This document shows, piece after piece, positions 40,953 to 57,464 of a stretch of DNA of 64,000 nucleotides. The stretch comes from Kofleriaceae bacterium (GTDB lineage Bacteria; Myxococcota_A; Polyangia; Haliangiales; Haliangiaceae). The position numbers and the translations under genes are program-made. Every line of letters starts with the position of its first letter. The first letter of the stretch is position 1. Location of the stretch: the NCBI GenBank assembly GCA_964203225.1, contig CAXNMK010000002.1, positions 737,664 to 801,663 of the forward strand, in the 5' to 3' direction. The notes under the pieces were generated by a model. That model worked only from the letters and a program-made list of their open reading frames with translations. It searched no databases and was not told the DNA's origin.

Positions 40953-41801
40953 GTGTTCCTCAAGTATCTCGACTTCGTCTTTGCGCCGTTCCGCGCCCTC
41001 CAGAACAAGTGGCTCGGCGTCAAGAACATCAAGGGCAACATCCAGGTCGACATCAACCGCGCGAAGTCCCTCGGGCAGCGCGGGAAGAACTTCGCGGGCG
41101 AGGTCAACCAGTTCAACGCCAAGGCGCAGGGGCAGCCGGGTGCGCAGCCGCAGGGCGCGCCCGCCCAGCCGCAGGGCTACCCACAGCCAGGTCAACAGGG
41201 AGCGCATATGCAGCAGCCACCGCAACCCGGGATGCCCGGGATGCCACCCGGGATGCCCGGCATGCCGGGCGCGCAGGGCGCCCCGCCCGCACCGGGCGCG
41301 CCCAGTCCGAACCCGCCGCTGCGCGTCAGCGGAGCGTGGTTCTGGAAGAAGAAGTTCTGCACGCAGTGTCAGCAGCAGCTCGACGCATCGTGGGACGCCT
41401 GTCCGTACTGCGCACAGATCGCGCAACAGGCGGCGGCCGCGCCCGCGAAGCTGCAGGCCCTCAAGACCCAGGCGTTTGTGATCGACGCCAGCGGCGGGCC
41501 GAGCGGCGTGCAGCTGTGCGGCTGGCTGGTGGCGCTGCAGGGACCGCAGAAGGGGGAGCTGTTCTCGCTGCAACCCACCACGATCATCGGGACCGATGCG
41601 AAGGCGACGGTCGTGCTGCAGGACAAGTTCATGTCGAGCAAGCACGCCGAGGTCAAGGCCGAGAACGGGATCTGGGTCCTCAAGGACAGCGGTTCGACCA
41701 ACGGCACCTACGTCAACAACAAGCGCGTCGAGCGCCACGAACTGGTCGACAACGACTTCGTGAAGTTCGGCAGCTTCATGCTCAAGTTCAAGTCTCTATG
41801 A
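40953..41801 (+). CDS. FHA-domain protein with internal zinc ribbon and Pro/Gln-rich linker (FHA-1)
   Basis: CTQCQQQLDASWDACPYC zinc ribbon. C-terminal FHA (GTDAKATVVLQDKFMSSKHAEV...GSTNGTYVNNKRV...LVDNDFVKFG). Confidence 0.75.
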   Translation: MFLKYLDFVFAPFRALQNKWLGVKNIKGNIQVDINRAKSLGQRGKNFAGEVNQFNAKAQGQPGAQPQGAPAQPQGYPQPGQQGAHMQQPPQPGMPGMPPGMPGMPGAQGAPPAPGAPSPNPPLRVSGAWFWKKKFCTQCQQQLDASWDACPYCAQIAQQAAAAPAKLQALKTQAFVIDASGGPSGVQLCGWLVALQGPQKGELFSLQPTTIIGTDAKATVVLQDKFMSSKHAEVKAENGIWVLKDSGSTNGTYVNNKRVERHELVDNDFVKFGSFMLKFKSL

Positions 41802-43330
41802 CCAGCTGGAACCTCATCGCTCGTCGCGCGAACGTCGCGCTGGTCGCGCTGTTCTCGATGTTCCTCGGGGTGTTCGGACCGGGCCTCGCGGCCGCCGAAG
41901 GCGTCGAGGTACTTCTCTCCGTGAAGGATCCGGAGCCAGGCAGCAAGCAGGCCAACGACGCCCCGCAGATCGAGGCCACCGTGATCGGCGCGGCCAAGGT
42001 GCCCGTCGAGAAGTTCATCCTGACCGACCCGAGCGCCAAGCCGCCGGTCATGCTCAAGGCGACCTCGCTGCGCCCGTTCACCTCCGGCGGCGAGACCATC
42101 GCCATCGCGCTGGTGTTCAACGGCCAGGAGATCTGGATCGGTAACGACGACCTCGAGGCAGAGGACAGCCCGGCTCGTTACCTGGGCATCCTCAAGAGCC
42201 TCAAGACCGCGCTCCAGGAGGTTCCGTTCGCCACCGCCGGCCCGGAGGGCAGCAAGGGCATCCTGATCTCGTACGCGGACAAACCCGAGATCAAGGTCCC
42301 GATGGGGCCGCTCGGCGCTATCACCGCCGAGTCCCTCGGCACCCAAAAGGACTACCAAAAGAAGATCGGAACCGTGATGGTCGAGGGTATTTCGTTCGCC
42401 CTCGGCGAGCTCAGCGCGGTGACGGCGTCCCGCAAGGCGCTGATCGTCGTGTGCGACGGCAACGACTCGAGTCCCGACACCGCCAAGGCCAAGCTTCTCG
42501 ACCTCAAGAAGCAGGCGGCGAGCGACAAGGTCCAGACGTTCGCGATCATCTACAAGGGCCAGTTGTCCGACCCGGCGAACTTGGTCACGACGATGATCCC
42601 AAACGCGACGACGGTGACCAACGCCGAGGGCATCGCCGCCGCGATCACGTCGATCCTCAAGCGCATGGATGACCGCGTCTACCTGACGTTCCCGGGCTAC
42701 GACGCCAAGCAGAAGGCGGGCTTCAACTGGGACGGCAAGGCGCACGACCTCGTCCTCAAGGTCGACAAGGATGAGATCGAAACCGAGCCGCTCATGCTGA
42801 GGGCCTGGAGCCCGGTGAAGAAGAGTGGCTTCCCGTGGGGCATCCTGATCGGCGTCCTCGTGTTCCTGCTGCTGCTGATCATCATCGGCGTCAAGGTGTT
42901 CGGCAAGAAGGAGGAGCCGGAGCCGATGCCCATGCAGATGCCGATGATGCCGATGGGCGCGCCCGAGCCGCCCAGGCCTGCGGGCCCGGTCAAGACCGTC
43001 ATGATCAGCCTCAATGGCGGTGACGACGGGTTCCCGATCGTCGGGTGGCTCGTGCCGCTCAATGGTCCGGCCGCCTACCAGACCTATCGCCTGCGTTCGG
43101 GTGGCACCAAGATCGGCACCCAGCAGCCCGCGGACATCGTGATCAACGACGGCTTCATGAGCACCGAGCACTGCATGATCCAGTGCTCGCCGAACGGGTT
43201 CATGCTGGTGGACAACGGGTCGACCAACGGGTGCTACGTCAACGATGGCAAGGTCACCAAGTACGACCTCGTCGACAACGACGTGATCACGCTCGGCAAG
43301 ACAAACCTCAAGTTCAAGTCCATCAACTGA
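41801..43330 (+). CDS. Membrane-anchored FHA-domain protein with a periplasmic vWA-like domain (FHA-2)
   Basis: Signal/TM at the N-terminus, a vWA-like segment (ALIVVCDGNDSS), a TM helix (GILIGVLVFLLLLIIIGV) and a cytoplasmic C-terminal FHA (IGTQQPADIVINDGFMSTEHCMI...GSTNGCYVNDGKV). Confidence 0.7.
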   Translation, partial: TSWNLIARRANVALVALFSMFLGVFGPGLAAAEGVEVLLSVKDPEPGSKQANDAPQIEATVIGAAKVPVEKFILTDPSAKPPVMLKATSLRPFTSGGETIAIALVFNGQEIWIGNDDLEAEDSPARYLGILKSLKTALQEVPFATAGPEGSKGILISYADKPEIKVPMGPLGAITAESLGTQKDYQKKIGTVMVEGISFALGELSAVTASRKALIVVCDGNDSSPDTAKAKLLDLKKQAASDKVQTFAIIYKGQLSDPANLVTTMIPNATTVTNAEGIAAAITSILKRMDDRVYLTFPGYDAKQKAGFNWDGKAHDLVLKVDKDEIETEPLMLRAWSPVKKSGFPWGILIGVLVFLLLLIIIGVKVFGKKEEPEPMPMQMPMMPMGAPEPPRPAGPVKTVMISLNGGDDGFPIVGWLVPLNGPAAYQTYRLRSGGTKIGTQQPADIVINDGFMSTEHCMIQCSPNGFMLVDNGSTNGCYVNDGKVTKYDLVDNDVITLGKTNLKFKSIN

Positions 43331-43340
43331 ACCGTTTGCC

Positions 43341-43802
43341 GTGACCACCGAAGTCTTGATCGCCGTCATCGTGGGCGGCGCGGTCGTGTTGCTCGTGGTG
43401 ATCGGCCTCATCGCGAAGAAGAACGCCGGGCCGAAGGACCAGCGCGCGTGCGGTGGGTGCCGGCGCGTGATGCTGCCGGTGTGGACCAAGTGCCTGTTCT
43501 GCGGCTGGGCTCCCGGCGCTCGCCTCGAGTTCATCCTCGGGCCGATGGCCAACCAGACGCTCCAGCTGTCCGCCGAGGTCACGACGATGGGCTCGGTCGC
43601 CGGAAACACGGTCGTCCTCGCCGATCCCGCAGTGTCCCGGAAGCACGCGGGCATCCGCAAGATCGACGGCGCCTTCGAACTGGCCGATCTCGGCTCGACC
43701 AACGGCGTCTATGTCAACGGCCACAAGGTCCCGAAGAAGACGCTCGACGCCGGCGACATCATCCGCGTTGGCAACACCGAAGCCGTGTTCAAGCGCGACT
43801 GA
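43341..43802 (+). CDS. Membrane-anchored zinc-ribbon FHA-domain protein (FHA-3)
   Basis: N-terminal TM helix, CGGC...CLFC zinc ribbon, and an FHA domain (SRKHAGIRKIDGAFELADLGSTNGVYVNGHKV). Confidence 0.75.
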   Translation: MTTEVLIAVIVGGAVVLLVVIGLIAKKNAGPKDQRACGGCRRVMLPVWTKCLFCGWAPGARLEFILGPMANQTLQLSAEVTTMGSVAGNTVVLADPAVSRKHAGIRKIDGAFELADLGSTNGVYVNGHKVPKKTLDAGDIIRVGNTEAVFKRD

Positions 43803-43899
43803 GCAGCGAAGGCAGCAGCAAGGCAGGCGGATCGTACGAACAGGCGCGCCGCGACCAGTTCGTACGACCACGAGCGACGCGCCGCGCAGCGGCGGTGGA

Positions 43900-44075
43900 C
43901 GGCGCTCACCGCGCGGTGAAGGAGTGCCGCGCAGCGGCCGACTGAGAGGCCCAGGGTGAGCCGCGCAGCGGCCCGGTCGGCCAACGACGAGCGACGCCCG
44001 GACGCCGCGCAGCGGCCGCGGACCGCTCTCGCTCCGCTCGAAGGAGTGCCGCGCAGCGACCGACTGAAACACCGT
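43900..44075. repeat. Intergenic direct repeats (~27 bp GAAGGAGTGCCGCGCAGCGRCCGACTGA x2, plus GCCGCGCAGCGGC motif x5)
   Basis: Read directly from the sequence between the FHA-3 stop and the FHA-4 start (43803-44393). Confidence 0.7.
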
Positions 44076-44393
44076 CCGCGTTCTCGCCGGGCGGTGGGGC
44101 TGGTCGTCTCCGCGTGTTGCATCGCGCGTCGGGCGCTCTCAGGGCGTACTCGGCATCGACGGACCGGGCCGACGCCCCGGCGGCTCCACCACGGTGGGCG
44201 GCGCCCCGGCGGACCGTCCCGAACGACGCTGGTCGGGCGGCGGTCCGGTGGGTCCGGCGGTCCGGTGGTCCGGTGCCTGTGCCCGTGTCTGCGTGGGCTG
44301 CGGCCGCGCCGTCGAGCGGGGCTGCGGCCGTGCGTCGGGGGCTCCCGGGTCTGGCGCCCGCGCCGGCCGCCCGGTACGATAAGGAACACCTGA

Positions 44394-47080
<2,687 letters not shown>

Positions 47081-47101
47081 GGACGCGAGAGCAGGAGATC
47101 G

Positions 47102-48715
<1,614 letters not shown>

Positions 48716-48735
48716 AGGTACACTGACCAGAACCC

Positions 48736-49127
<392 letters not shown>

Positions 49128-49143
<16 letters not shown>

Positions 49144-49358
49144 GGAAGCAGGACATCGAGATCGTGATCAACGCCAAGGGCGAGGTCACCTACGAGGTCA
49201 AGGGCGTCAAGGGCGGGAGCTGCCTCGCCGAGACCGAGTTCCTGCTCGCCGCGCTGGGCGGGGACGGCTCCGTCCTCGAGCAGCAGAAGACCGGCGAGTT
49301 CTATGAACAATCAGAAGGTTACGTTTCGACCTGGGCCGGGGAAGCCAAGGACGAGTAA
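49128..49358 (+). CDS. DUF2997-like small protein
   Basis: QDIEIVINAKGEVTYEVKGVKGGSCLAETEFLLAALG resembles DUF2997, which is usually found next to DUF1257. Confidence 0.4.
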
Positions 49359-49367
49359 CCCCGTAGG

Positions 49368-50027
49368 ATGACTGCCGTGTCGACCGATCAAGAGCAGACC
49401 GACCTCCTCCCGGGGGCCGAAGGCGCCTCCACCGAACCTGCGGCGGAAGGGCTGACGGACGAGCTTGCTCGAAAGTACGACCCGGAGCGCCTGCTCAAGA
49501 TGGTCTCGCGGCGTGCCGGCAAGGGCACGACGCTCGACCACGACATCCGCGCCAAGTACGAGAAGCGGTTCGGCGTGGACCTCGGGCACGTCCGGATCTA
49601 CACGGGCGAGTTCGCCGAGGAGTTCAACCGCCAGCGCAGCGCGTACGCGGTGACGATCGGCTCGACGGGCATGATCCTCATGGGCGGGTCGCCCAACAAG
49701 TCGATGGGCACGAACGCCGGCCAGGCGCTGCTCGCCCACGAGCTGACGCACGTCGCCCAGGCCAAGCGCGGCCTGCACCGCGCCGCCCACGAGGGCGCGA
49801 TGCCCCTGGCGACCGAGAGCCACGAGGCCGAGGCCGAGGCCGTCGAGGCCGACGTCGCCCGTGGTGGCGACGGCGCGGCAAGCGCTGAGCCCGGCGGCGC
49901 CGCGAGCAAACTCGCCAAGGATGCCAAGGACGCGCTGCACGAACAGATCAAGCAGCGGGTCCTCGACATGGCCGCCGATGCCGCGCGCGCGTTCTACTGG
50001 CGCAACGGCGTCGATCGCCGCCCCTGA
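49368..50027 (+). CDS. DUF4157-like HExxH protein (domain that typically heads eCIS cargo/toxin proteins)
   Basis: LDHDIRAKYEKRFGVDLGHVRIYTG...AYAVTIGSTGMIL...AHELTHVAQ matches the DUF4157 pattern with its HExxH. Confidence 0.55.
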   Translation: MTAVSTDQEQTDLLPGAEGASTEPAAEGLTDELARKYDPERLLKMVSRRAGKGTTLDHDIRAKYEKRFGVDLGHVRIYTGEFAEEFNRQRSAYAVTIGSTGMILMGGSPNKSMGTNAGQALLAHELTHVAQAKRGLHRAAHEGAMPLATESHEAEAEAVEADVARGGDGAASAEPGGAASKLAKDAKDALHEQIKQRVLDMAADAARAFYWRNGVDRRP

Positions 50028-50176
50028 GAGGTGGACGCAACCTCGTCCGGGGGGCCGACGCGGCTTGCCGCGTGGGCGAGGGGCGAGCCCACGTGGACTC
50101 GAACGGGCCCCACGGGGGCGCGCATCCGGCCACCGAGCTTTGAGCCCGCGGTGATTCCTGCGGTATCCTGTCCCTG

Positions 50177-50857
50177 ATGAGTTCTCCTGAGGCCGACGCT
50201 GGTGTCGTCCAGTCCCGCGTTCAGCTCGAGAGGCTGGTCGCCGATGACGAACTGGCCGGTCGCACGATCGCCGGGTTCGCGGCGCCCTCGGTGCTGCTCC
50301 GGGGGCTCGACCTCGACGGGGTGACGCTGGATCGCCTCGACCTGCGCGGCGCCGACGGCGACGAGACCCGCCTCGAGCGCGCGGAGCTCAAGCTGAGCGA
50401 TCTCCGCACCTCGCAGTGGAAGGGCGCGCTGTGGAACCGCGTCAAGGCCAAGGACTGCGACATGACCGAGCTCGACTTCAGCGGCGCGCAGCTGCTCCGG
50501 TGCGAGTTCGGGCCGGTGCGGATGGCGCGCGTGCGCTTCCACCGCGCGCGGATCCAGGGCACGACGTTCAAGGAGTCGGAGCTGTACTCGGCCGACTTCG
50601 CCGGCGCCGTGCTGCTCAAGGTCGTGTTCGAGGGCTACGAGCACGCCACCGTGTCGCTGTCGCGCACGGACTGGACGGGTGCATCGCTGTTCGACGTCGA
50701 CTTCAAGCGCGCGAACATGTACGGCGCGAACCTGCGCGGTGCGGTGTTCGTCCGCTGCGACCTGCGCGGGGTCAGCCTGTGCAGTGCTGATCTCACCGGC
50801 GCGCGCCTCGTCGGCTGCGACACCACCGGCGCCGACCTCGACGGAGCCACGTTCTAG
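50177..50857 (+). CDS. Pentapeptide-repeat protein (candidate eCIS payload/accessory)
   Basis: Tandem A(D/N)LxG-type pentapeptide repeats throughout (ANLRGAVFVRCDLRGVSLCSADLTGARLVGCDTTGADLDGATF). Confidence 0.7.
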   Translation: MSSPEADAGVVQSRVQLERLVADDELAGRTIAGFAAPSVLLRGLDLDGVTLDRLDLRGADGDETRLERAELKLSDLRTSQWKGALWNRVKAKDCDMTELDFSGAQLLRCEFGPVRMARVRFHRARIQGTTFKESELYSADFAGAVLLKVVFEGYEHATVSLSRTDWTGASLFDVDFKRANMYGANLRGAVFVRCDLRGVSLCSADLTGARLVGCDTTGADLDGATF

Positions 50858-50877
50858 GACCTCGTAGGAGCCCGCCC

Positions 50878-51498
50878 ATGCCGCCCCGCCCCGATCTCCG
50901 TGACATCGCTTCGAACGTCCGCGAGGCGTTCGCCGATGCTGACCGCGACACCCTGCTCGACGTCCTGACCTTCGTGGTCAAGGAGTATGTCGTCGAGGGG
51001 CCGCCGCCGATGATGATCCACCAGGCCGAGACGCTCTCGGACCTCAAGGGCATGTCGTTCGCCCAGCTGATCGCCGCGATGCAGACGCGCTTCGATCACG
51101 CCGAGCTGGCGATGTTTGTCGTCGATGGCGAGCAGGTCAGCGTGCGCGTCGGCGGTGTCGTCCAGCCGCTGCTGCCCAGCCGGCAGCCGATCGCCGAGCC
51201 CCCGCGGCAGGCGCCAGGGGTCCGCGTTGTCGAGACCACGCTGGCCCAGCAGCGCCCCGCTGCGCCCGCGCCGGTCGCCGCCGTCCCCGCGCCGCGGCCC
51301 GCTGCCCCGGCGTCGGCGCCGTCGGCACAGCCGCCCACGCGGGGCCTGTCCCTGCGCGGGCGGCCCACGGGGGAGGGTGGGGATGCACCGCCGCTTGCCG
51401 CGCCGCCGCCCGCGGCCGCCGCGCCGCCGCCGCCGGACCGCCCCGAGGGTGGGGGCGACGATGCCTCCGCGCGGTTCAGCCTGCTGGAGCTCGACTGA
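50878..51498 (+). CDS. Hypothetical protein with a Pro/Ala-rich C-terminal half
   Basis: ORF with a protein-like N-terminus. No domain recognised. Confidence 0.3.
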   Translation: MPPRPDLRDIASNVREAFADADRDTLLDVLTFVVKEYVVEGPPPMMIHQAETLSDLKGMSFAQLIAAMQTRFDHAELAMFVVDGEQVSVRVGGVVQPLLPSRQPIAEPPRQAPGVRVVETTLAQQRPAAPAPVAAVPAPRPAAPASAPSAQPPTRGLSLRGRPTGEGGDAPPLAAPPPAAAAPPPPDRPEGGGDDASARFSLLELD

Positions 51499-51941
51499 TG
51501 AGCTCTGTCGCACGGCGCTACTACGAGCGCGGCCGGCAATCGCTCGACACCGGCGATGTGGAGTCGGCGCAAGAGGCCCTGCGCGCCGCGCTCGACCTCG
51601 CGCCGCAGTTCGGCAACGCCCGGGTGGCGTACGCCGTGGCGCTCGCGCGCGCCGGGGACTGTCCACGCGCGGCCGCCGTCCTGCGTGCGGGCCTCGGGCG
51701 CGCGTCGTCGCCGATCTCCGCCGCCGCGATGTACGCCACGCTCGGCGACGTCCTCACCCTTGGCGGTGACTTTTTCGGGGCCGAGGATGCGTTCATGCAG
51801 GCGGCCGCCACGCCCGGCTTCGAGGTGCGAGCCGCCGCGGGCCTCGCGCGCACGTACGCCAAGCTCGGGCGCCACGCGGACATGGCCAGGCAGCTCAAGC
51901 TCGCCGCGGCCGCGTCGTTGCGAGGCCCCACGACGCCCTAG
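51498..51941 (+). CDS. TPR-repeat protein
   Basis: ARRYYERGRQSLDTGDVESAQEALRAALDLAPQFGNARVAYAVALARAGDCPRAAAVL shows tetratricopeptide-like repeats. ATGA coupled to the upstream ORF. Confidence 0.5.
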   Translation: MSSVARRYYERGRQSLDTGDVESAQEALRAALDLAPQFGNARVAYAVALARAGDCPRAAAVLRAGLGRASSPISAAAMYATLGDVLTLGGDFFGAEDAFMQAAATPGFEVRAAAGLARTYAKLGRHADMARQLKLAAAASLRGPTTP

Positions 51942-52041
51942 TCCCGACGATCGCGCGCGCAGTTCCACGGGGCTCCGCCCCGCCCGCCGCGTCCAGCCGC
52001 GCAGGGTTTCCACCCCGGATTCGAGACGGGTTCACCGTCTC

Positions 52042-52854
52042 TCAGTAGCGCTGCATCTGGTGCGGGTAGCCCTGCGGCGGCACCCACAGTGGATCGACGA
52101 ACGTCTGCGTCAGCACGACGGTGATGTTGTCCGTGCCGCCGTTGTTGTTGGCGGCGCGGATCAGGTTCTCGGCGACCACCTCGATCGAGTCGCCCGACGT
52201 CATGATCTCGCGGATCATCCAGTCGTCGACGAGATCGGACAGGCCGTCACAGCACAGCAGGAACACGTCGTTGTGTTCGGGGACGAACGTGTTGTGCTCG
52301 ATCTCGACGTTCGCATCGAGGCCGACGGCCCGGATGATCACGTTCGAAGTCGCGGGGCCGAGCGTGCCGACCAGGTCAGGACGGTCCTGGTACAGGTTGC
52401 GGAGCGAGTGGTCGCGCGTCAGCTGGCGCAGCTGGCCCTGGCGAAGCAGGTACGCGCGCGAGTCGCCGCAGTGGCAGATGTGGACGAGGCCCTCCTCGAA
52501 CCGGAAGCCGACCGCGGTGGTGCCCATCCCGTGGCAGCTGTGGTCCATCTGAGCGCGCTGGAACACCGCCATGTTGGCGGCCTTCATCGCGGTGGTCAGG
52601 GGATCCTGACCCGGCGGGGACGGCGGATCGCTGGTCTTGAGCGCGTGGACGATGGTCCGGATCGCAATGTCGGAGGCGACCTGACCCGACGCATGGCCTC
52701 CCATGCCGTCGCAGACGACGTACACGCCGAGGAAGTCGTCGTAGTACATCGCATCCTCGTTCTGCGTGCGCTGGGCGCCGACGTCGGTGCGGCCCACCGC
52801 GCGCAGGAGGAACCTCTCGACGGGAACCGGGCGGCCGACGCTGTCGTAGCTCAC
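52042..52854 (-). CDS. PP2C-family Ser/Thr protein phosphatase
   Basis: GRTDVGAQRTQNEDAMY...VVCDGMGGHASGQVAS...TTAVGFRFEEGLVHICHCGDSRAYLL...DNITVVL are canonical PP2C motifs. Confidence 0.85.
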   Translation of the reverse strand: MSYDSVGRPVPVERFLLRAVGRTDVGAQRTQNEDAMYYDDFLGVYVVCDGMGGHASGQVASDIAIRTIVHALKTSDPPSPPGQDPLTTAMKAANMAVFQRAQMDHSCHGMGTTAVGFRFEEGLVHICHCGDSRAYLLRQGQLRQLTRDHSLRNLYQDRPDLVGTLGPATSNVIIRAVGLDANVEIEHNTFVPEHNDVFLLCCDGLSDLVDDWMIREIMTSGDSIEVVAENLIRAANNNGGTDNITVVLTQTFVDPLWVPPQGYPHQMQRY

Positions 52855-52942
52855 AGCGCTTCCTCAGGACAGACGGTCATCATCGGATCTACGCCTCGCG
52901 CGTGGTGCAGCTTCCCCACCGTGTGGGTGTTCGTGGGACGAA

Positions 52943-53638
52943 TCATTCGGTCACCCGTCGGTTCGGGAGCGTGGCTCGCTTGGGGATGTCGATCCAGGGG
53001 GCGCGCAGCTCGGCGCGCAGCTCGGCGATCACCGCCCGCACCGCGTGGCCGGGGGTGTCCTCGAGAGGCGGCAGCTTCCAGCTGGTCCGGATCGCGGTGC
53101 GGACCTCGGCCACCGCGTCGATCCGGTCCTCCTCGGCGGGATCGACCATCTCGAACGTCTTCTCGAACTCGAGGTCGGGGCGGTGGAGGTCTCGCAGCAG
53201 CGCCTGCGGGGTGGTCTCGGCGAGCTGGTCCTCGATGTCCTGTGGGCGCTCGACCTCGCGGGGCTCCGCGACCGCCATCAGGTTGCCGATCATCGCGAGG
53301 TCGATCATCGGCATGGTCGGGTCGAGACGCAGCGTGATCGCCTCGCGGAACATCAGCAGGTCGTCCGGGGGCTCGATGCGGCGACGGTGCGCCTCGAGGA
53401 GCGCCGGATCGACCGCGGCGATCGCGCGCTGCCGGCGCTCGCGGACCTCCGCGATGTCGGGATCCTCGGTCGAGCCCGGGGCCTCCCCGGCCTCGACCTG
53501 ATCGAACGAGGGCAGCCCGAACCACTTCTCGAGCTCCGCCTTCGTCGCCGCGTCGACGAGCTCCTCGAGCGGCTGTTCGAGGGAGCGCTCGAGCAGCTGC
53601 TTGACGGTCGGGTCGCGCTTGTCGTCGTCGGTCGACAT
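52943..53638 (-). CDS. Hypothetical acidic protein (co-directional with the kinase)
   Basis: 231-aa ORF. No domain recognised. Confidence 0.3.
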   Translation of the reverse strand: MSTDDDKRDPTVKQLLERSLEQPLEELVDAATKAELEKWFGLPSFDQVEAGEAPGSTEDPDIAEVRERRQRAIAAVDPALLEAHRRRIEPPDDLLMFREAITLRLDPTMPMIDLAMIGNLMAVAEPREVERPQDIEDQLAETTPQALLRDLHRPDLEFEKTFEMVDPAEEDRIDAVAEVRTAIRTSWKLPPLEDTPGHAVRAVIAELRAELRAPWIDIPKRATLPNRRVTE

Positions 53639-53657
53639 GGCCTTGGGGCTCGAGGTG

Positions 53658-55280
53658 TCAGAGCAGCTGCAGGTAGGCGACGTACGCGCCCGCGCCCGAG
53701 GCGATGCCGATCAGCAGCGAGACCACCCAGAACAGCGGCGTGGCCCCGTGCGAGGTGGTACCCTCCACCACCGGCTGGAGCGCGCTGCCCGTGCGCGCGA
53801 CCGACACCACGCCCTCGCTGGGCTGCAGCATGATGGTCTTGTTGGGGTTGCCACCACCCGGCGGCTGCATGCCCGGCGGCTGCATCATCCCCGGCGGCTG
53901 CATGCCGGGCTGCATCATGCCCGGCGGCTGCATGCCCTGGCCCGGGATCTGGGGCGCCATTCCGGCGACGATCGTCTTCTGGTTCGAGCCCGACGGCTGG
54001 GATCCCCCCCCCCCCGGGGGCTGGAACCCGCCCTGCGGCGGCATCCCGCCCGGGGGCTGGAACCCGCCCTGCGGCGGCATCCCGCCCGGGGGCTGGAACC
54101 CGCCCTGCGGCTGCATCCCGCCCGGGGGCTGGAACCCGCCCTGCGGCGGCATCCCGCCCGGGGGCTGGAACCCGCCCTGCGGCGGCATCCCGCCGGGGCC
54201 CTGCGGTTGCATCGACCCACCCGGCGCGAATGGGCTCATGCCGGCGATCATGGTCTTCTGCTGGGCAGAGGCGGCCACGTAACCGCCCTGCGGCGGGGGC
54301 TGCTGTTGCGGCTGTGGCTGCATGTGCTGCCCGTGGCCGGCGTAGGGCGCCTGCGGGACAAGGCCCGGCGGCAGCTGCCCCGGCCCGGCGACGACGGTCT
54401 TCGGGACACCACCGCCACCGATCGCCACGCCACCACCCGCGAGCTCGGCGAACACCTGCTGGCAGTGCTGCATCATCTCGCCGGCGGACTGGTAGCGCCG
54501 CGCCGCGTCCTTCTCGAGCGCGCGCCGGACCACCTGCTGCACCGAGTATGGGATCGAGTCCGCCATCGGCGGGATCTCACGCTTGAGGTGCATCTGGATC
54601 ACCGTCATCGGGTTCTCGTCGTTGAACGGCACGTTGCCGGTCAGCATCTCGTACGCGAGGATGCCGAGGGCGTAGAGGTCCGAGCGGGCGTCGAGCTGCC
54701 CGCCGCGGCCCTGTTCGGGCGACATGTACTGCGGGGTCCCGAACACCACGCCCGCCTGCGTCTTCATGCGGTCACCCTCGAGCAGCTTCGCGACCGAGAA
54801 GTCGAGCAGCTTCACGAAGTCCGGCGAGCCCGCCATGTTCAGCAGGAACACGTTGTCGGGCTTGATGTCGCGGTGGATGATCCCGATCGAGTGGGCCTCG
54901 GCGAGCGAGGCGCAGCACTGGATCATGATCTTCATCACGCGGTTTGGCGTGAGCGGGCCCTTGGCCACGGCATCGCGGAGCGAGATGCCGTCGAGGAACT
55001 CCATCGTCATGAACAGGCGACCCTCGGTCGTCTGTCCGAAGTCGAACATCCGGATCGTGTTCGGGTGCTGCAGGCGCGAGCACGCCTTCGCCTCGTTGTA
55101 GAACCGCTGGACCCAGTTCGGATCCGCCGCCATCTGGGCGTTGAGGATCTTCACCGCGATCACGCGGTCGATCGAGATCTGGCGGGCCTTGTAGACCACG
55201 CCCATGCCACCTTCACCGACGCGGACCTGGATCTCGTACCGGTTGTCGATGACCTGGCCGACGAGAGGATCGTGGGTCAT
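53658..55280 (-). CDS. Hanks-type Ser/Thr protein kinase with C-terminal PQG-rich repeats and a TM anchor
   Basis: Start MTHDPLVGQVIDNRYEI. Kinase motifs GEGGMGVVYKA, VAVK, HRDIKPDN, DFS, GTPQYMSPE. C-terminal (GGFQPPGGMPPQ)x5 repeats and a terminal hydrophobic helix. The upstream ORF extension to 56084 was rejected. Confidence 0.85.
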   Translation of the reverse strand: MTHDPLVGQVIDNRYEIQVRVGEGGMGVVYKARQISIDRVIAVKILNAQMAADPNWVQRFYNEAKACSRLQHPNTIRMFDFGQTTEGRLFMTMEFLDGISLRDAVAKGPLTPNRVMKIMIQCCASLAEAHSIGIIHRDIKPDNVFLLNMAGSPDFVKLLDFSVAKLLEGDRMKTQAGVVFGTPQYMSPEQGRGGQLDARSDLYALGILAYEMLTGNVPFNDENPMTVIQMHLKREIPPMADSIPYSVQQVVRRALEKDAARRYQSAGEMMQHCQQVFAELAGGGVAIGGGGVPKTVVAGPGQLPPGLVPQAPYAGHGQHMQPQPQQQPPPQGGYVAASAQQKTMIAGMSPFAPGGSMQPQGPGGMPPQGGFQPPGGMPPQGGFQPPGGMQPQGGFQPPGGMPPQGGFQPPGGMPPQGGFQPPGGGGSQPSGSNQKTIVAGMAPQIPGQGMQPPGMMQPGMQPPGMMQPPGMQPPGGGNPNKTIMLQPSEGVVSVARTGSALQPVVEGTTSHGATPLFWVVSLLIGIASGAGAYVAYLQLL

Positions 55281-56338
55281 TTGGGGCTGAGCTTCACGCG
55301 GTCGTTGGCCTTGATCTGATCCGTCGTCAGACGGACCTTTCCAATCGTGGTGTTCTTGTCGACGCGCACCACCTGCACGTCTCCACCGGGCAGCGCGACA
55401 TCGCTGTCCCCGCGCAGGACGTAGACGCGCCAGCCCTTCGCGATCCCGGAGTTGGTGCCGGCGCCGATCGTGATGACGACCTCGCCGCCCTGGACTTCGT
55501 TCTTGAGCACGCGGGCGGTCACCGGATCGGCGGTGGCGTCGTCGCAGTTCGGGTTCAGCGGGTCCGGCGCCTTGAGGTCGCACTTGGGCCACAGCGTCTT
55601 CTTGCATGACTTGATGCGGCGGTCGGGCGGGTTCGGGCACGGCATGCTCGCCTGGCACGATGGGATGTCCGCCGACGGCGGCGTCGGGCACTTGTCCTTG
55701 CACGGCGGCCATCCGGCCGGTGCGCCGAACTCCGGGCAGACCGATACGCACGACGGGTTCTTCGGGTCGAACGGCTCGCACGGCAGGATCGGATCCGGCA
55801 CCGCCGCGAGCTTCGGCGGATCCGGCACCTCGAGCTTCAGCGGGTCGAACAGCGCGGTGGCCGACTGCTCCTGGAACTCGACGGACAGCTTGTACTTGCC
55901 TGCGTCGCCGCGGCCGACCGCGTAGACGCGGATGAAGTACTTGCCCTTCGCGTTGTCGAGCGTGGCGAGCTTGGTGCGCCCCTTCGAGCGCTTCTTGCTC
56001 GTCTTCTTCGAGCTGGTGATGGGCGTGTTCCACTCGTCGAACACGTCGAAGGCGAGCTGCAGGCCCGGCCGCGGCGGCGTCCACTGAAGCTTGACCTCGA
56101 GCTTGCCCTTCTTGTTCTCGGGCAACTCGAGGAGCCTCCAGTCGATGCGGTCGCCACCTGGATAGGTGACGATCCCGGTGGCCTTCGCTTCGCCGTTCTC
56201 CAGCGTGAGCGGCCGCGCACCTTTGACCTTGCCGTCGTTACCGGTCGCCTTGTCCTGCGCCACGTTGTGGGCGCACGACACGACGACCAGGAAGAGCGCC
56301 AGGGCACAGCCCCAGCGGCCCACCGATTTCCCGAGCAT
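55277..56338 (-). CDS. Secreted/lipoprotein, Cys-rich C-terminal region. Paralog of 56509..57408
   Basis: Signal peptide with lipobox-like LVVVSC. Shares GD..W..DL...GELE(I/V)KL and C-terminal G.V.I..G...G...GW.G...G blocks with the next gene. ATGA overlap with the kinase start. Confidence 0.5.
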   Translation of the reverse strand: MLGKSVGRWGCALALFLVVVSCAHNVAQDKATGNDGKVKGARPLTLENGEAKATGIVTYPGGDRIDWRLLELPENKKGKLEVKLQWTPPRPGLQLAFDVFDEWNTPITSSKKTSKKRSKGRTKLATLDNAKGKYFIRVYAVGRGDAGKYKLSVEFQEQSATALFDPLKLEVPDPPKLAAVPDPILPCEPFDPKNPSCVSVCPEFGAPAGWPPCKDKCPTPPSADIPSCQASMPCPNPPDRRIKSCKKTLWPKCDLKAPDPLNPNCDDATADPVTARVLKNEVQGGEVVITIGAGTNSGIAKGWRVYVLRGDSDVALPGGDVQVVRVDKNTTIGKVRLTTDQIKANDRVKLSPK

Positions 56339-56508: not shown

Positions 56509-57408
56509 TCAGGGCGAGACGGTGACGCTGCCGCCGCCGGCCTTGATCTGGTCAGGCGTTGCGGGGACGACGGCGGTGCAGGTGCGCGGGCCGCACGAGG
56601 CGATCGAGAACGAGCTCGACACGCCCGAGATCTTGCCCTTCCAGCCCGGGGCGACCCCCTGGTCGGAGCCGAGCGCGATGGTGACCTGGGTGCCGCCGCC
56701 GGTCACCGAGACGTTGATGATGCGGCCGCTCTTCGCGGAGCTGGCGACCGCGGGCGGGGGCGTCGGCTCCCTCGGCGGGCGCGCGCCGCGCGGCTGCTTC
56801 TTGATGGTGACGACCGCGGTCTGGGGCGGCTTGTACTTGGCCGGGGTGTCGTCGCTCAGCGGGACCTGTGCGAGCGTCGGGATGAACGCCACCTGCGCGG
56901 GAAAGTCGCTCTTGACCTCGGCGGGCGCGGTCGCGCGGAACGACATCCGCATGTCGTATTCGGCGGAGTCGAGGCGGCTCTGGAGGTAGAGGTGGATCAG
57001 ATAGCGGCCCGGCGCGAGGTCGTAGAGCGTGCGGGTCTTGTTGAGCTCCCCGACGTCCTCCTCCTCGAGGTCCGCCTTGCTGATGACGCGGTTGCCCGGG
57101 TCGAGGATCTCCATCGCGAGATCGAAGTCCTCGTTGGTCGCGTCGCCGGGCGGCGTGACCTCGAGCTTGATCTCGAGCTCGCCGGTCTGCCCGAGATCGA
57201 CCGCGTACCACTTGGCTCGCTTGAACTCGCGGTAGGACAGATCGCCGAGGGCCTTGGTCTCGCCCTTGTCGTTGAAGGCGAGGACCTTGGGCTTCTTCCA
57301 CGGCTTGACCTTCTCGGTCTTGTAGCCGCTGTGGATCGGGATGTTCGTGCCGCCACAGGCGGTCAGGGCACTCGCGCCAAGGATGGTCGCGATGACAACA
57401 CGTCGCAT
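56509..57408 (-). CDS. Lipoprotein, paralog of 55277..56338
   Basis: Signal peptide plus lipobox LTAC. Conserved blocks shared with the neighbouring gene. Confidence 0.5.
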   Translation of the reverse strand: MRRVVIATILGASALTACGGTNIPIHSGYKTEKVKPWKKPKVLAFNDKGETKALGDLSYREFKRAKWYAVDLGQTGELEIKLEVTPPGDATNEDFDLAMEILDPGNRVISKADLEEEDVGELNKTRTLYDLAPGRYLIHLYLQSRLDSAEYDMRMSFRATAPAEVKSDFPAQVAFIPTLAQVPLSDDTPAKYKPPQTAVVTIKKQPRGARPPREPTPPPAVASSAKSGRIINVSVTGGGTQVTIALGSDQGVAPGWKGKISGVSSSFSIASCGPRTCTAVVPATPDQIKAGGGSVTVSP

Positions 57409-57464
57409 GGCCGAGACACTAGCACGGGCTCGACACCCCCTGCCCGTGGTGTATACGCCCGCAT

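Follow-up and report, generated by a model that had tools for sequence, protein, structure and literature searches.

We analyzed a 64,000-nucleotide stretch of the genome of a Kofleriaceae bacterium (assembly GCA_964203225.1, contig CAXNMK010000002.1, forward-strand positions 737,664 to 801,663; hereinafter the window, numbered from its first letter) which carries the gene cluster of an extracellular contractile injection system (eCIS) and, within it, four consecutive genes for FHA domain proteins (FHA1 to FHA4) next to an AAA ATPase gene. The G+C content of the window is about 70%, and genes were called using the third-position GC bias (GC3) and then checked with Pfam. The structural genes are encoded on the plus strand in the order Pvc16_N cap, sheath, gp19 tube, sheath, tube, two large uncharacterized genes, CIS_tube, GPD hub, two Phage_base_V spikes, gp25, Baseplate_J, a PASTA and Tail_P2_I protein and a 511-aa protein in the fibre position. 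All core families of the eCIS, as listed in Supplementary Data 10 of Geller 2021 (sheath, gp19, gp25, Baseplate_J, spike/hub, DUF4255/Pvc16 cap, AAA and DUF4157), score above the Pfam gathering thresholds, and no type VI secretion (T6SS) family is found among the Pfam matches of the cluster proteins. The cluster is a bona fide eCIS with a complete structural set. An earlier note, made from the DNA letters alone, had described four consecutive FHA genes between the fibre-position gene and the ATPase gene, and the gene calls and Pfam searches bear out this arrangement. The same note had placed a PP2C phosphatase and a Ser/Thr kinase downstream on the opposite strand; this also proved right, with the segment that it singled out, 40953-55280, running from the start of FHA1 to the start of the kinase gene, and its inventory of domains was confirmed with Pfam.

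The FHA genes turned out to be a constant feature of this eCIS lineage. A scan of species-dereplicated genomes with the ATPase yielded 80 loci, 18 of which (L001-L017 and L035) encode an ATPase at least 68% identical to that of the window; 14 of these Haliangiales loci reach the upstream FHA region and 13 extend far enough downstream to cover the kinase operon. Across the 18 loci, tblastn and hidden Markov model (HMM) searches revealed the same gene order, namely Baseplate_J, Tail_P2_I, fibre, FHA1-FHA2-FHA3-FHA4, ATPase, DUF1257, eCIS_core, pentapeptide, uncharacterized protein and TPR. At least four FHA open reading frames (ORFs), in the same order, separate the fibre gene from the ATPase gene in 14 of 14 loci, at ATPase identities from 92% down to 68%. 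As comparators we used the Afp cluster of pADAP and the published tables for Myxococcus xanthus, PVC and Nostoc; the 62 non-Haliangiales ATPase loci of the scan were unusable as representatives of other eCIS lineages because they lack any eCIS genes. The structural gene set of the window is the same as that of Afp, PVC and M. xanthus MXAN_4491-4514, and in M. xanthus the gene order is the same as well (pentapeptide, cap, sheath, tube, sheath, tube ... gp25, Baseplate_J, Tail_P2_I, uncharacterized genes, AAA). However, no FHA, Pkinase or PP2C domains and no DUF1257 or DUF2997 genes are listed for Afp, PVC or M. xanthus: the Afp cluster on pADAP has no FHA genes, and none of the three domains is recorded for the M. 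xanthus eCIS in the supplementary table of Geller 2021. Given the presence of the FHA module in all 14 Haliangiales loci and its absence from the M. xanthus eCIS and Afp, comparative gene content identifies the module as a lineage-defining accessory of the Haliangiales eCIS. Homologs of the ATPase in more than 120 clusters are 84-99% identical to it and, where named, come from Kofleriaceae, Haliangiales or Myxococcota, and the region together with its housekeeping flanks is syntenic across Kofleriaceae; hence this eCIS looks like a stable part of the chromosome that is passed on vertically and not like a mobile island. This degree of conservation points to a physiologically important machine in a predatory bacterial group.

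All four FHA domains are unequivocal, with PF00498 scores of 56-65 bits compared with the gathering cut-off of 20.7, but the proteins that contain them differ widely in architecture (coordinates of these and all other features are given in Table 1). FHA1 is cytoplasmic; a P/Q-rich linker and a zinc ribbon of the CxxC...CxxC kind precede its C-terminal FHA domain. In FHA2, topology prediction places an N-terminal signal or transmembrane segment (residues 13-31) before a domain of about 300 residues, followed by a transmembrane segment (349-367) and a C-terminal FHA domain. The AlphaFold2 model, built on 40 homologs, has a pLDDT of 80-93 over residues 35-335, and this region resembles the vWA structures of BatB, vWF A3 and ArnB (Foldseek, E-values down to 5e-8), and several FHA2 homologs carry PF00092 or PF13519. 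FHA2 is thus predicted to combine a periplasmic vWA-fold domain with a transmembrane segment and a cytoplasmic FHA domain; inspection by eye detected no DxSxS motif of the metal ion-dependent adhesion site (MIDAS) in the vWA domain. In FHA3, an N-terminal transmembrane anchor (6-24) is followed by a zinc ribbon and then by the FHA domain. The zinc ribbons of FHA1 and FHA3 were recognized by eye from the CxxC...CxxC pattern, their DZR match (19 bits) being below the cut-off. In FHA4, the FHA domain is N-terminal and precedes a P/G-rich stretch (about 300 aa) and a long coiled coil (about 500 aa). Pfam and NCBIfam searches of FHA1-4 gave no DNA-binding domain. The four proteins all pass the gathering threshold of Yop-YscD_cpl. 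The TagH model TIGR03354 matches the FHA domain only, with 31.2 bits for FHA1, 26.4 for FHA2 and 36.0 for FHA3, against a cut-off of 120.25, and does not match FHA4. Three of the related loci (L007, L015 and L017) contain a fifth FHA gene, which is located between FHA3 and FHA4 and is paralogous to FHA2; the L017 copy overlaps the FHA3 region.

Table 1. Features of the eCIS cluster and the adjoining kinase operon, by window position.
Feature	Position	Strand	Evidence or remark
eCIS structural genes	16943-40826	+	Pfam, GC3 gene calls
Fibre-position gene, 511 aa	39291-40826	+	position; no Pfam match
Terminator-like hairpin, 10-bp stem then T run	40859-40884	+	just after fibre-position gene stop
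Extended -10-like motif TGGTAGGAT	40900-40908	+	45 nt upstream of FHA1 start
FHA1, 282 aa	40953-41801	+	Pfam FHA, E 7.6e-18
FHA2, 510 aa	41798-43330	+	Pfam FHA, E 3.6e-16
FHA3, 153 aa	43341-43802	+	Pfam FHA, E 2.6e-17
Window-specific intergenic insert, 590 nt	43803-44392		FHA3-FHA4 spacer
FHA4, 895 aa	44393-47080	+	Pfam FHA, E 5e-15
AAA ATPase, distinct N-terminal domain, Afp15 position	47102-48715	+	PF00004, E 5e-29
DUF1257 protein	48736-49143	+	Pfam
DUF2997 small protein	49128-49358	+	Pfam, E 1.1e-11; gene also called in L082, L083 and L087-L090
eCIS_core/DUF4157 protein	49368-50027	+	Pfam
Pentapeptide-repeat protein	50177-50857	+	Pfam; syntenic in all related loci
Uncharacterized protein, 206 aa	50878-51498	+	syntenic in all related loci
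TPR protein, end of plus-strand unit	51498-51941	+	Pfam; syntenic in all related loci
PP2C phosphatase, last operon gene	52042-52854	-	PF00481 and PF13672 above cut-offs
Acidic protein between kinase and PP2C, 231 aa	52943-53638	-	uncharacterized
Hanks Ser/Thr kinase	53658-55280	-	Pkinase, E 1.2e-47, 163 bits
Lipoprotein, 353 aa, lipobox VVSC	55277-56338	-	stop overlaps kinase start
Lipoprotein, lipobox LTAC, first operon gene	56509-57408	-	weak sub-threshold PPC match
Extended -10-like motif TGCTAGTGT	57416-57424	-	7 nt upstream of first ATG of kinase operon

The ATPase encoded downstream of FHA4 had been called Afp15-like. This holds for its position and for one AAA domain; the match to Afp15, a 696-aa protein with two AAA domains, is 24% identity over 196 residues of the D2 AAA domain (E 2e-9), and the N-terminal regions of the two proteins are unrelated. 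In Pfam searches, it is the sole AAA gene of the eCIS cluster, and with no other AAA ATPase there, the unit of FHA and ATPase genes appears to supply a core eCIS function. Outside Haliangiales, the nearest relatives of the ATPase (42-54% identity) come from many phyla, including archaea, and from plasmids. A phmmer search with 11 structural proteins of the window detected no eCIS gene in the 62 non-Haliangiales ATPase loci, and Pfam searches with 105 ORFs from seven of these loci returned housekeeping families. A DUF1257 gene is detectable in 13 of the 62; an FHA ORF lies beside the ATPase in one (L055), the remaining 61 lacking FHA genes, and in another (L039) a kinase is encoded about 2.4 kb downstream of the ATPase. 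DUF1257 occurs only once among the 22,287 domain hits of the eCIS set of Geller 2021. Taken together, the single-domain match to Afp15 and the occurrence of the nearest relatives outside eCIS loci indicate, at the level of sequence comparison, that the Haliangiales eCIS uses an otherwise stand-alone AAA-DUF1257-DUF2997 module in the Afp15 position.

By position, the FHA genes are part of the eCIS operon, as had been suggested, but FHA1 is preceded by a conserved promoter-like motif. In 12 related loci, a TGnTAnnnT motif, which corresponds to the extended -10-like motif of the window, precedes the conserved FHA1 start by 20-45 nt, in spacers that have otherwise diverged, and in L002 its place is taken by a degenerate GGTAAACT; the whole window contains just six occurrences of TGnTAnnnT on both strands, another of which is the motif ahead of the kinase operon. 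This conservation suggests that the FHA genes probably open a second transcription unit that also includes the genes for the ATPase and for the DUF4157, pentapeptide and TPR proteins. We rejected the terminator-like hairpin downstream of the fibre gene as proof of a separate operon because it is not conserved in orthologous loci. In some of the loci, the gap between the fibre gene and FHA1 is as small as 30-70 nt. Within the unit, the spacer between FHA3 and FHA4 comprises 590 nt in the window versus roughly 30-230 nt in related loci. This insert shows no similarity to the orthologous loci and contains five copies of GCCGCGCAGCGRC where chance would predict 0.2; they are spaced at 34-45 nt and lie in a duplicated unit of about 122 nt, and the array could be a regulator-binding array or the insertion of a small repeat element.

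The kinase belongs to a five-gene minus-strand operon (unk14-unk13-STK-unk11-PP2C) that converges on the FHA unit across a gap of 100 bp. The kinase (540 aa) consists of a kinase domain, a P/Q/G-rich region and one hydrophobic segment (512-530), which ends 10 residues from the C-terminus, so the protein is predicted to be tail-anchored and to lack a sensor or extracytoplasmic domain; of the transmembrane kinase originally described, the C-terminal anchor therefore stands but an extracytoplasmic part does not. The motifs GEGGMG, AVK, HRDIKPDN, DFS and SPE are all present, with DFG instead of DFS in most orthologs. The PP2C contains conserved DGMGG and GGxDN motifs and scores 210 bits with the Stp1-type NCBIfam model, just under the cut-off of 230. 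Both the HRD motif of the kinase (with DFG or DFS) and the metal-binding motifs of the PP2C are conserved in the orthologs. The first two genes of the operon encode lipoproteins with related (paralogous) N-terminal domains, for which no family match was found; the 353-aa lipoprotein has a Cys- and Pro-rich middle region. The acidic protein encoded between the kinase and PP2C genes has 718 matches, the best 120 of which all look Kofleriaceae-like, and its AlphaFold2 model is poor (pLDDT 65, pTM 0.2). The extended -10-like motif of this operon is of the same type as that upstream of FHA1; a TG-type motif is also present at this position in L007, L009, L012, L014 and L015, GGCTATAGT is found in L011, and L017 has none. 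The motif is 6-7 nt from the ATG (17 nt in L007), and its distance of 7 nt from the first ATG in the window suggests that the transcript is leaderless.

The combination of a Hanks kinase, a PP2C phosphatase and FHA proteins encoded with a contractile injection machine resembles the PpkA/PppA/Fha1 pathway of the T6SS; the Fha/PpkA pathway, with the Fha-TssL pair of Agrobacterium, provides a precedent (PMC3953482). The likeness extends to a periplasm-facing vWA domain and an FHA protein next to an AAA+ ATPase. The lipoproteins TagQ and TagR of the T6SS are comparable to those of the kinase operon. The differences are substantial: the vWA domain resides on FHA2 here but on the kinase in PpkA, the kinase of the window having no extracytoplasmic domain; the FHA proteins are not of the TagH family, there are four of them, and three lack the arginine that contacts phosphothreonine; and the machine is an eCIS (Pvc16 cap, DUF4157), not a T6SS. 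The description of the module as T6SS-like is accordingly borne out for the presence of kinase, PP2C and FHA proteins with conserved catalytic motifs, but the TagH scores are below the cut-off and a PpkA-type vWA is missing. Since FHA1-3 score far below the TagH cut-off, FHA4 is unmatched and the vWA domain is on an FHA protein, the system would work like the PpkA/PppA/Fha pathway without being a member of it.

Among eCIS, the closest parallel is that of Roseiflexus sp. RS-1 (RoseRS_1666-1670), where a gene for an FHA and Tail_P2_I fusion is followed by two Pkinase and FHA genes (Geller 2021 supplements). In both systems, FHA and Hanks kinase genes adjoin the baseplate genes; in Roseiflexus, however, FHA is fused to Tail_P2_I and to the kinases, whereas in the window the four FHA proteins, of which two are anchored in the membrane, are encoded separately and the kinase has its own operon. 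FHA domains (PF00498) are in fact enriched in eCIS loci (35 occurrences, odds ratio 5.6, false discovery rate (FDR) 4.6e-13, 4 phyla) and classed as 'Regulatory, Shell' in Supplementary Data 10 of Geller 2021, the main text of which does not discuss FHA. Thus, the view of the earlier note that such a phospho-switch is not a standard eCIS component holds against Afp and M. xanthus, with the proviso that the enrichment of FHA had already been tabulated (Geller 2021). FHA domains and phosphorylation go unmentioned in the main text of the open-access large eCIS surveys, the tail-fibre catalog, a 2023 review and a 2024 toxin study, and our literature search for eCIS in combination with FHA, kinases or threonine phosphorylation yielded nothing but papers on the T6SS or on unrelated subjects. 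The association of eCIS with FHA is therefore already recorded but unanalyzed, with no mechanism proposed in the literature searched. What the present locus adds is an eCIS whose FHA module is fixed and in part embedded in the membrane, whose ATPase set is unusual and whose neighboring kinase/phosphatase operon is plausibly cognate.

That the FHA genes are always present and the kinase/phosphatase operon is usually adjacent suggests a machine that is switched or docked by protein phosphorylation. Under the reading that we favor, FHA2 and FHA3 would present their FHA domains at the inner membrane, on its cytoplasmic side, FHA4 would read phosphothreonines that the tail-anchored Hanks kinase generates and PP2C removes, and the two lipoproteins of the operon would be candidates for inputs from the envelope. 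The place and time of the ATPase-dependent step, be it particle assembly, cargo loading or membrane docking, would then be gated by phosphorylation, in a scheme analogous to T6SS PpkA/PppA/Fha1 but built from unrelated family members. The pairing of the kinase with the FHA proteins, the substrates and the controlled step are what we infer. That an inner-membrane FHA scaffold, read mainly through FHA4 and controlled by the neighboring kinase and PP2C, gates assembly, loading or docking of the eCIS is a proposal to which we give somewhat less than an even chance. With two membrane-anchored FHA proteins, a cell-attached mode is conceivable. In a bolder version of this proposal, the machine would not be extracellular at all: the eCIS-derived apparatus would dock at the inner membrane of the producer through FHA2, FHA3 and the coiled-coil tether of FHA4, and the kinase and PP2C would arm or fire it on envelope signals; we regard this as rather unlikely, although, if true, T6SS-like phospho-gated action would have evolved independently in Myxococcota.

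Several observations weigh against phosphorylation control, some of them from the FHA domains themselves. In FHA domains, the arginine of the Gly-Arg motif contacts the phosphate. We aligned the FHA cores of all orthologs, with the register of FHA1-3 set by motif inspection rather than structure and that of FHA4 confirmed by alignment with the FHA domains of GarA and OdhI. FHA4 retains Gly-Arg, Ser-x-x-His and Asn-Gly in every ortholog. In FHA1, the arginine is replaced by threonine (Gly-Thr), Gly-Arg being found solely in the L017 ortholog; FHA2 has Gly-Thr, Gly-Ser, Gly-Asn or Gly-Lys across orthologs, with threonine in the window; and FHA3 has Gly-Ser in all orthologs. Ser-x-x-His and Ser/Thr-Asn-Gly are retained in all four domains. 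Because the phosphate-contacting arginine is lost in FHA1-3, only FHA4 is predicted to be a confident phosphothreonine reader, and binding by FHA1-3 may be weak or phosphate-independent. The phospho-switch of the earlier note thus keeps a complete pocket in FHA4 but has to accommodate three of four FHA domains with a conserved loss of the arginine.

The link between the kinase operon and the eCIS is likewise equivocal. Of the 13 genome loci, 11 have the kinase/PP2C operon next to the eCIS unit and converging on it, as do all seven further contigs that we reached through homologs of the 231-aa protein. Beyond the operon, however, genes for cytochrome c, QueG, a LAM-like radical SAM protein, NUDIX and HhH-GPD follow in the same order in all seven contigs; part of this housekeeping flank (cytochrome c, QueG and the LAM-like radical-SAM gene) is visible in the window, and cytochrome c also follows the kinase operon in L011, L012 and L015. 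With a housekeeping flank that is equally conserved, adjacency is inseparable from vertical synteny and could simply reflect the stability of this chromosomal region. The comparison with related genomes that had been put forward as a check therefore comes out clearly for the FHA genes and ambiguously for the kinase operon. None of the seven contigs carries the kinase operon without the eCIS, but all of them kept the backbone flank, so this does not discriminate. In two loci (L010 and L013), the eCIS is retained along with its four FHA genes, but other DNA follows, with no kinase or PP2C gene within about 7 kb downstream. Furthermore, myxobacteria encode very many Hanks kinases, any of which could serve these FHA proteins. 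PP2C (PP2C_2) is not enriched in eCIS loci (odds ratio 1.7, FDR 0.82; Geller 2021).

On the other side, searches with HMMs built from the orthologs detected no further FHA, kinase or PP2C gene elsewhere in the 64-kb window, so that the clustering does not reflect background density: the only kinase and the only PP2C of the window adjoin its only four FHA genes, 100 bp from the end of the unit. The slot between the two units is variable, from 100 bp in the window (51942-52041) to 1-5 kb in loci with an insert and about 6 kb in L087; inserts are found in L002, L003, L005, L012, L035, L081 and L087-L090. Those of L002, L087, L088 and L089 encode extra Hanks kinases, and that of L087 also an FHA-sigma54 activator. 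The slot often holds a recurring pair of uncharacterized genes (about 320 and 365 aa), and in L017 it contains a paralog of the fibre-position gene. On this comparative evidence, we consider it about as likely as not that the FHA module is acted on by this particular kinase/PP2C pair.

The most serious competitor of the gating proposal is a purely structural role. The FHA proteins (FHA2 and FHA3 in the membrane, FHA4 as a coiled-coil tether) might hold or organize the particle or its ATPase at the inner membrane as a phospho-independent anchor, in the manner of YscD/PrgH of the type III secretion system (T3SS) and of GltG of the myxobacterial Agl-Glt gliding complex, with the kinase operon being an unrelated neighbor. 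YscD/PrgH and GltG span the inner membrane once (bitopic) and carry their FHA domain on the cytoplasmic side, and the conserved loss of the phosphothreonine-binding arginine in three domains, the Yop-YscD_cpl scores of all four proteins, the domain-level NCBIfam matches to GltG, the two transmembrane anchors and the long coiled coil would all fit such a role, as would a backbone flank that is as syntenic as the kinase operon and the two loci without the operon nearby. The resemblance to GltG and YscD is nevertheless at the domain level only, far below the GltG family cut-offs. Unlike FHA4, FHA domains of the YscD type do not have a full phosphothreonine pocket, and an anchor of this kind would leave unexplained why FHA4 keeps every canonical residue in all orthologs and why even FHA1-3 keep SxxH and S/T-N-G. 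The position of the sole kinase and PP2C of the 64 kb, 100 bp from the end of the unit, the recurrence of further kinases and an FHA-sigma54 activator in the slot between the units, and the direct coupling of Pkinase and FHA in the Roseiflexus eCIS also speak for phosphorylation. We consider the structural anchor possible, though on balance improbable.

Two further explanations detach the FHA genes from the operation of the particle. FHA1-4 and AAA-DUF1257-DUF2997 might constitute a phospho-regulated ATPase module that is separate from the injection system, serves another function in the cell and is merely inherited beside the eCIS, which would agree with the promoter-like motif upstream of FHA1 and the hairpin after the fibre gene in the window, with the housekeeping contexts and partial DUF1257 linkage of its closest non-Haliangiales relatives (up to 54% identity), with the limited resemblance to Afp15 and the single DUF1257 in the published eCIS set, and with the FHA ORF and the kinase near the ATPase in L055 and L039, respectively. 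Yet in all loci eCIS-specific genes lie to either side of the block (fibre and baseplate upstream, eCIS_core/DUF4157 downstream), AAA is a core eCIS gene and the cluster lacks a second one, the gap to the fibre gene can be very short, and nearly all stand-alone ATPase loci are devoid of FHA genes, so that this explanation seems improbable to us. Still less probable is a regulator modeled on archaeal ArnA (zinc finger and FHA) and ArnB (vWA) with the kinases ArnC/D, in which a complex of FHA1 and FHA3 with FHA2, controlled by phosphorylation, would mainly set eCIS gene expression, as ArnA and ArnB do for the archaellum. The architectures do match, a zinc ribbon with FHA and a vWA fold, sequence and structure searches against the PDB retrieved ArnA (5a8i, 8s05_C) and ArnB (8s05, 5a8j), a kinase and phosphatase are nearby, and one related genome has the FHA-sigma54 activator in the adjacent slot. 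But ArnA and ArnB are soluble cytoplasmic proteins, whereas the vWA domain of FHA2 is predicted to be periplasmic and is fused through a transmembrane segment to its own FHA domain, FHA1-4 have no DNA-binding domain detected with Pfam or NCBIfam, and the context is an injection system, not the archaellum.

To our knowledge, there is very little information on how producer cells assemble, load, release or restrain their eCIS particles. The FHA module and the kinase operon offer a genetically testable handle on the post-translational control or membrane docking of an eCIS and, if the switch is real, would be relevant to the engineering of controllable eCIS delivery tools.

Some additional features of the cluster deserve mention. 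Searches of the window against Rfam gave zero matches at gathering thresholds; no lysis cassette was noticed in the cluster, where no systematic search for one was made; and a reading of the locus as anti-phage defense was dropped because PADLOC gave generic kinase, AAA and coiled-coil matches only. The second Phage_base_V spike gene runs into a very G+C-rich array (30588-34246) of about 33 copies of a 33-nt unit, with additional 84- and 168-nt repeats, which encodes glycine repeats of the GGGAGGGSGTG type; the apparent reading frame flips several times, indicating either repeat-length assembly errors or real frameshifts. Finally, the Tail_P2_I protein (38389-39294) has an N-terminal PASTA domain (E 1.9e-9) that, judging from tblastn coverage, is kept in the orthologs. 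PASTA domains are otherwise typical of PknB-type kinases and penicillin-binding proteins, and their occurrence on Tail_P2_I may reflect recognition of peptidoglycan by the baseplate.

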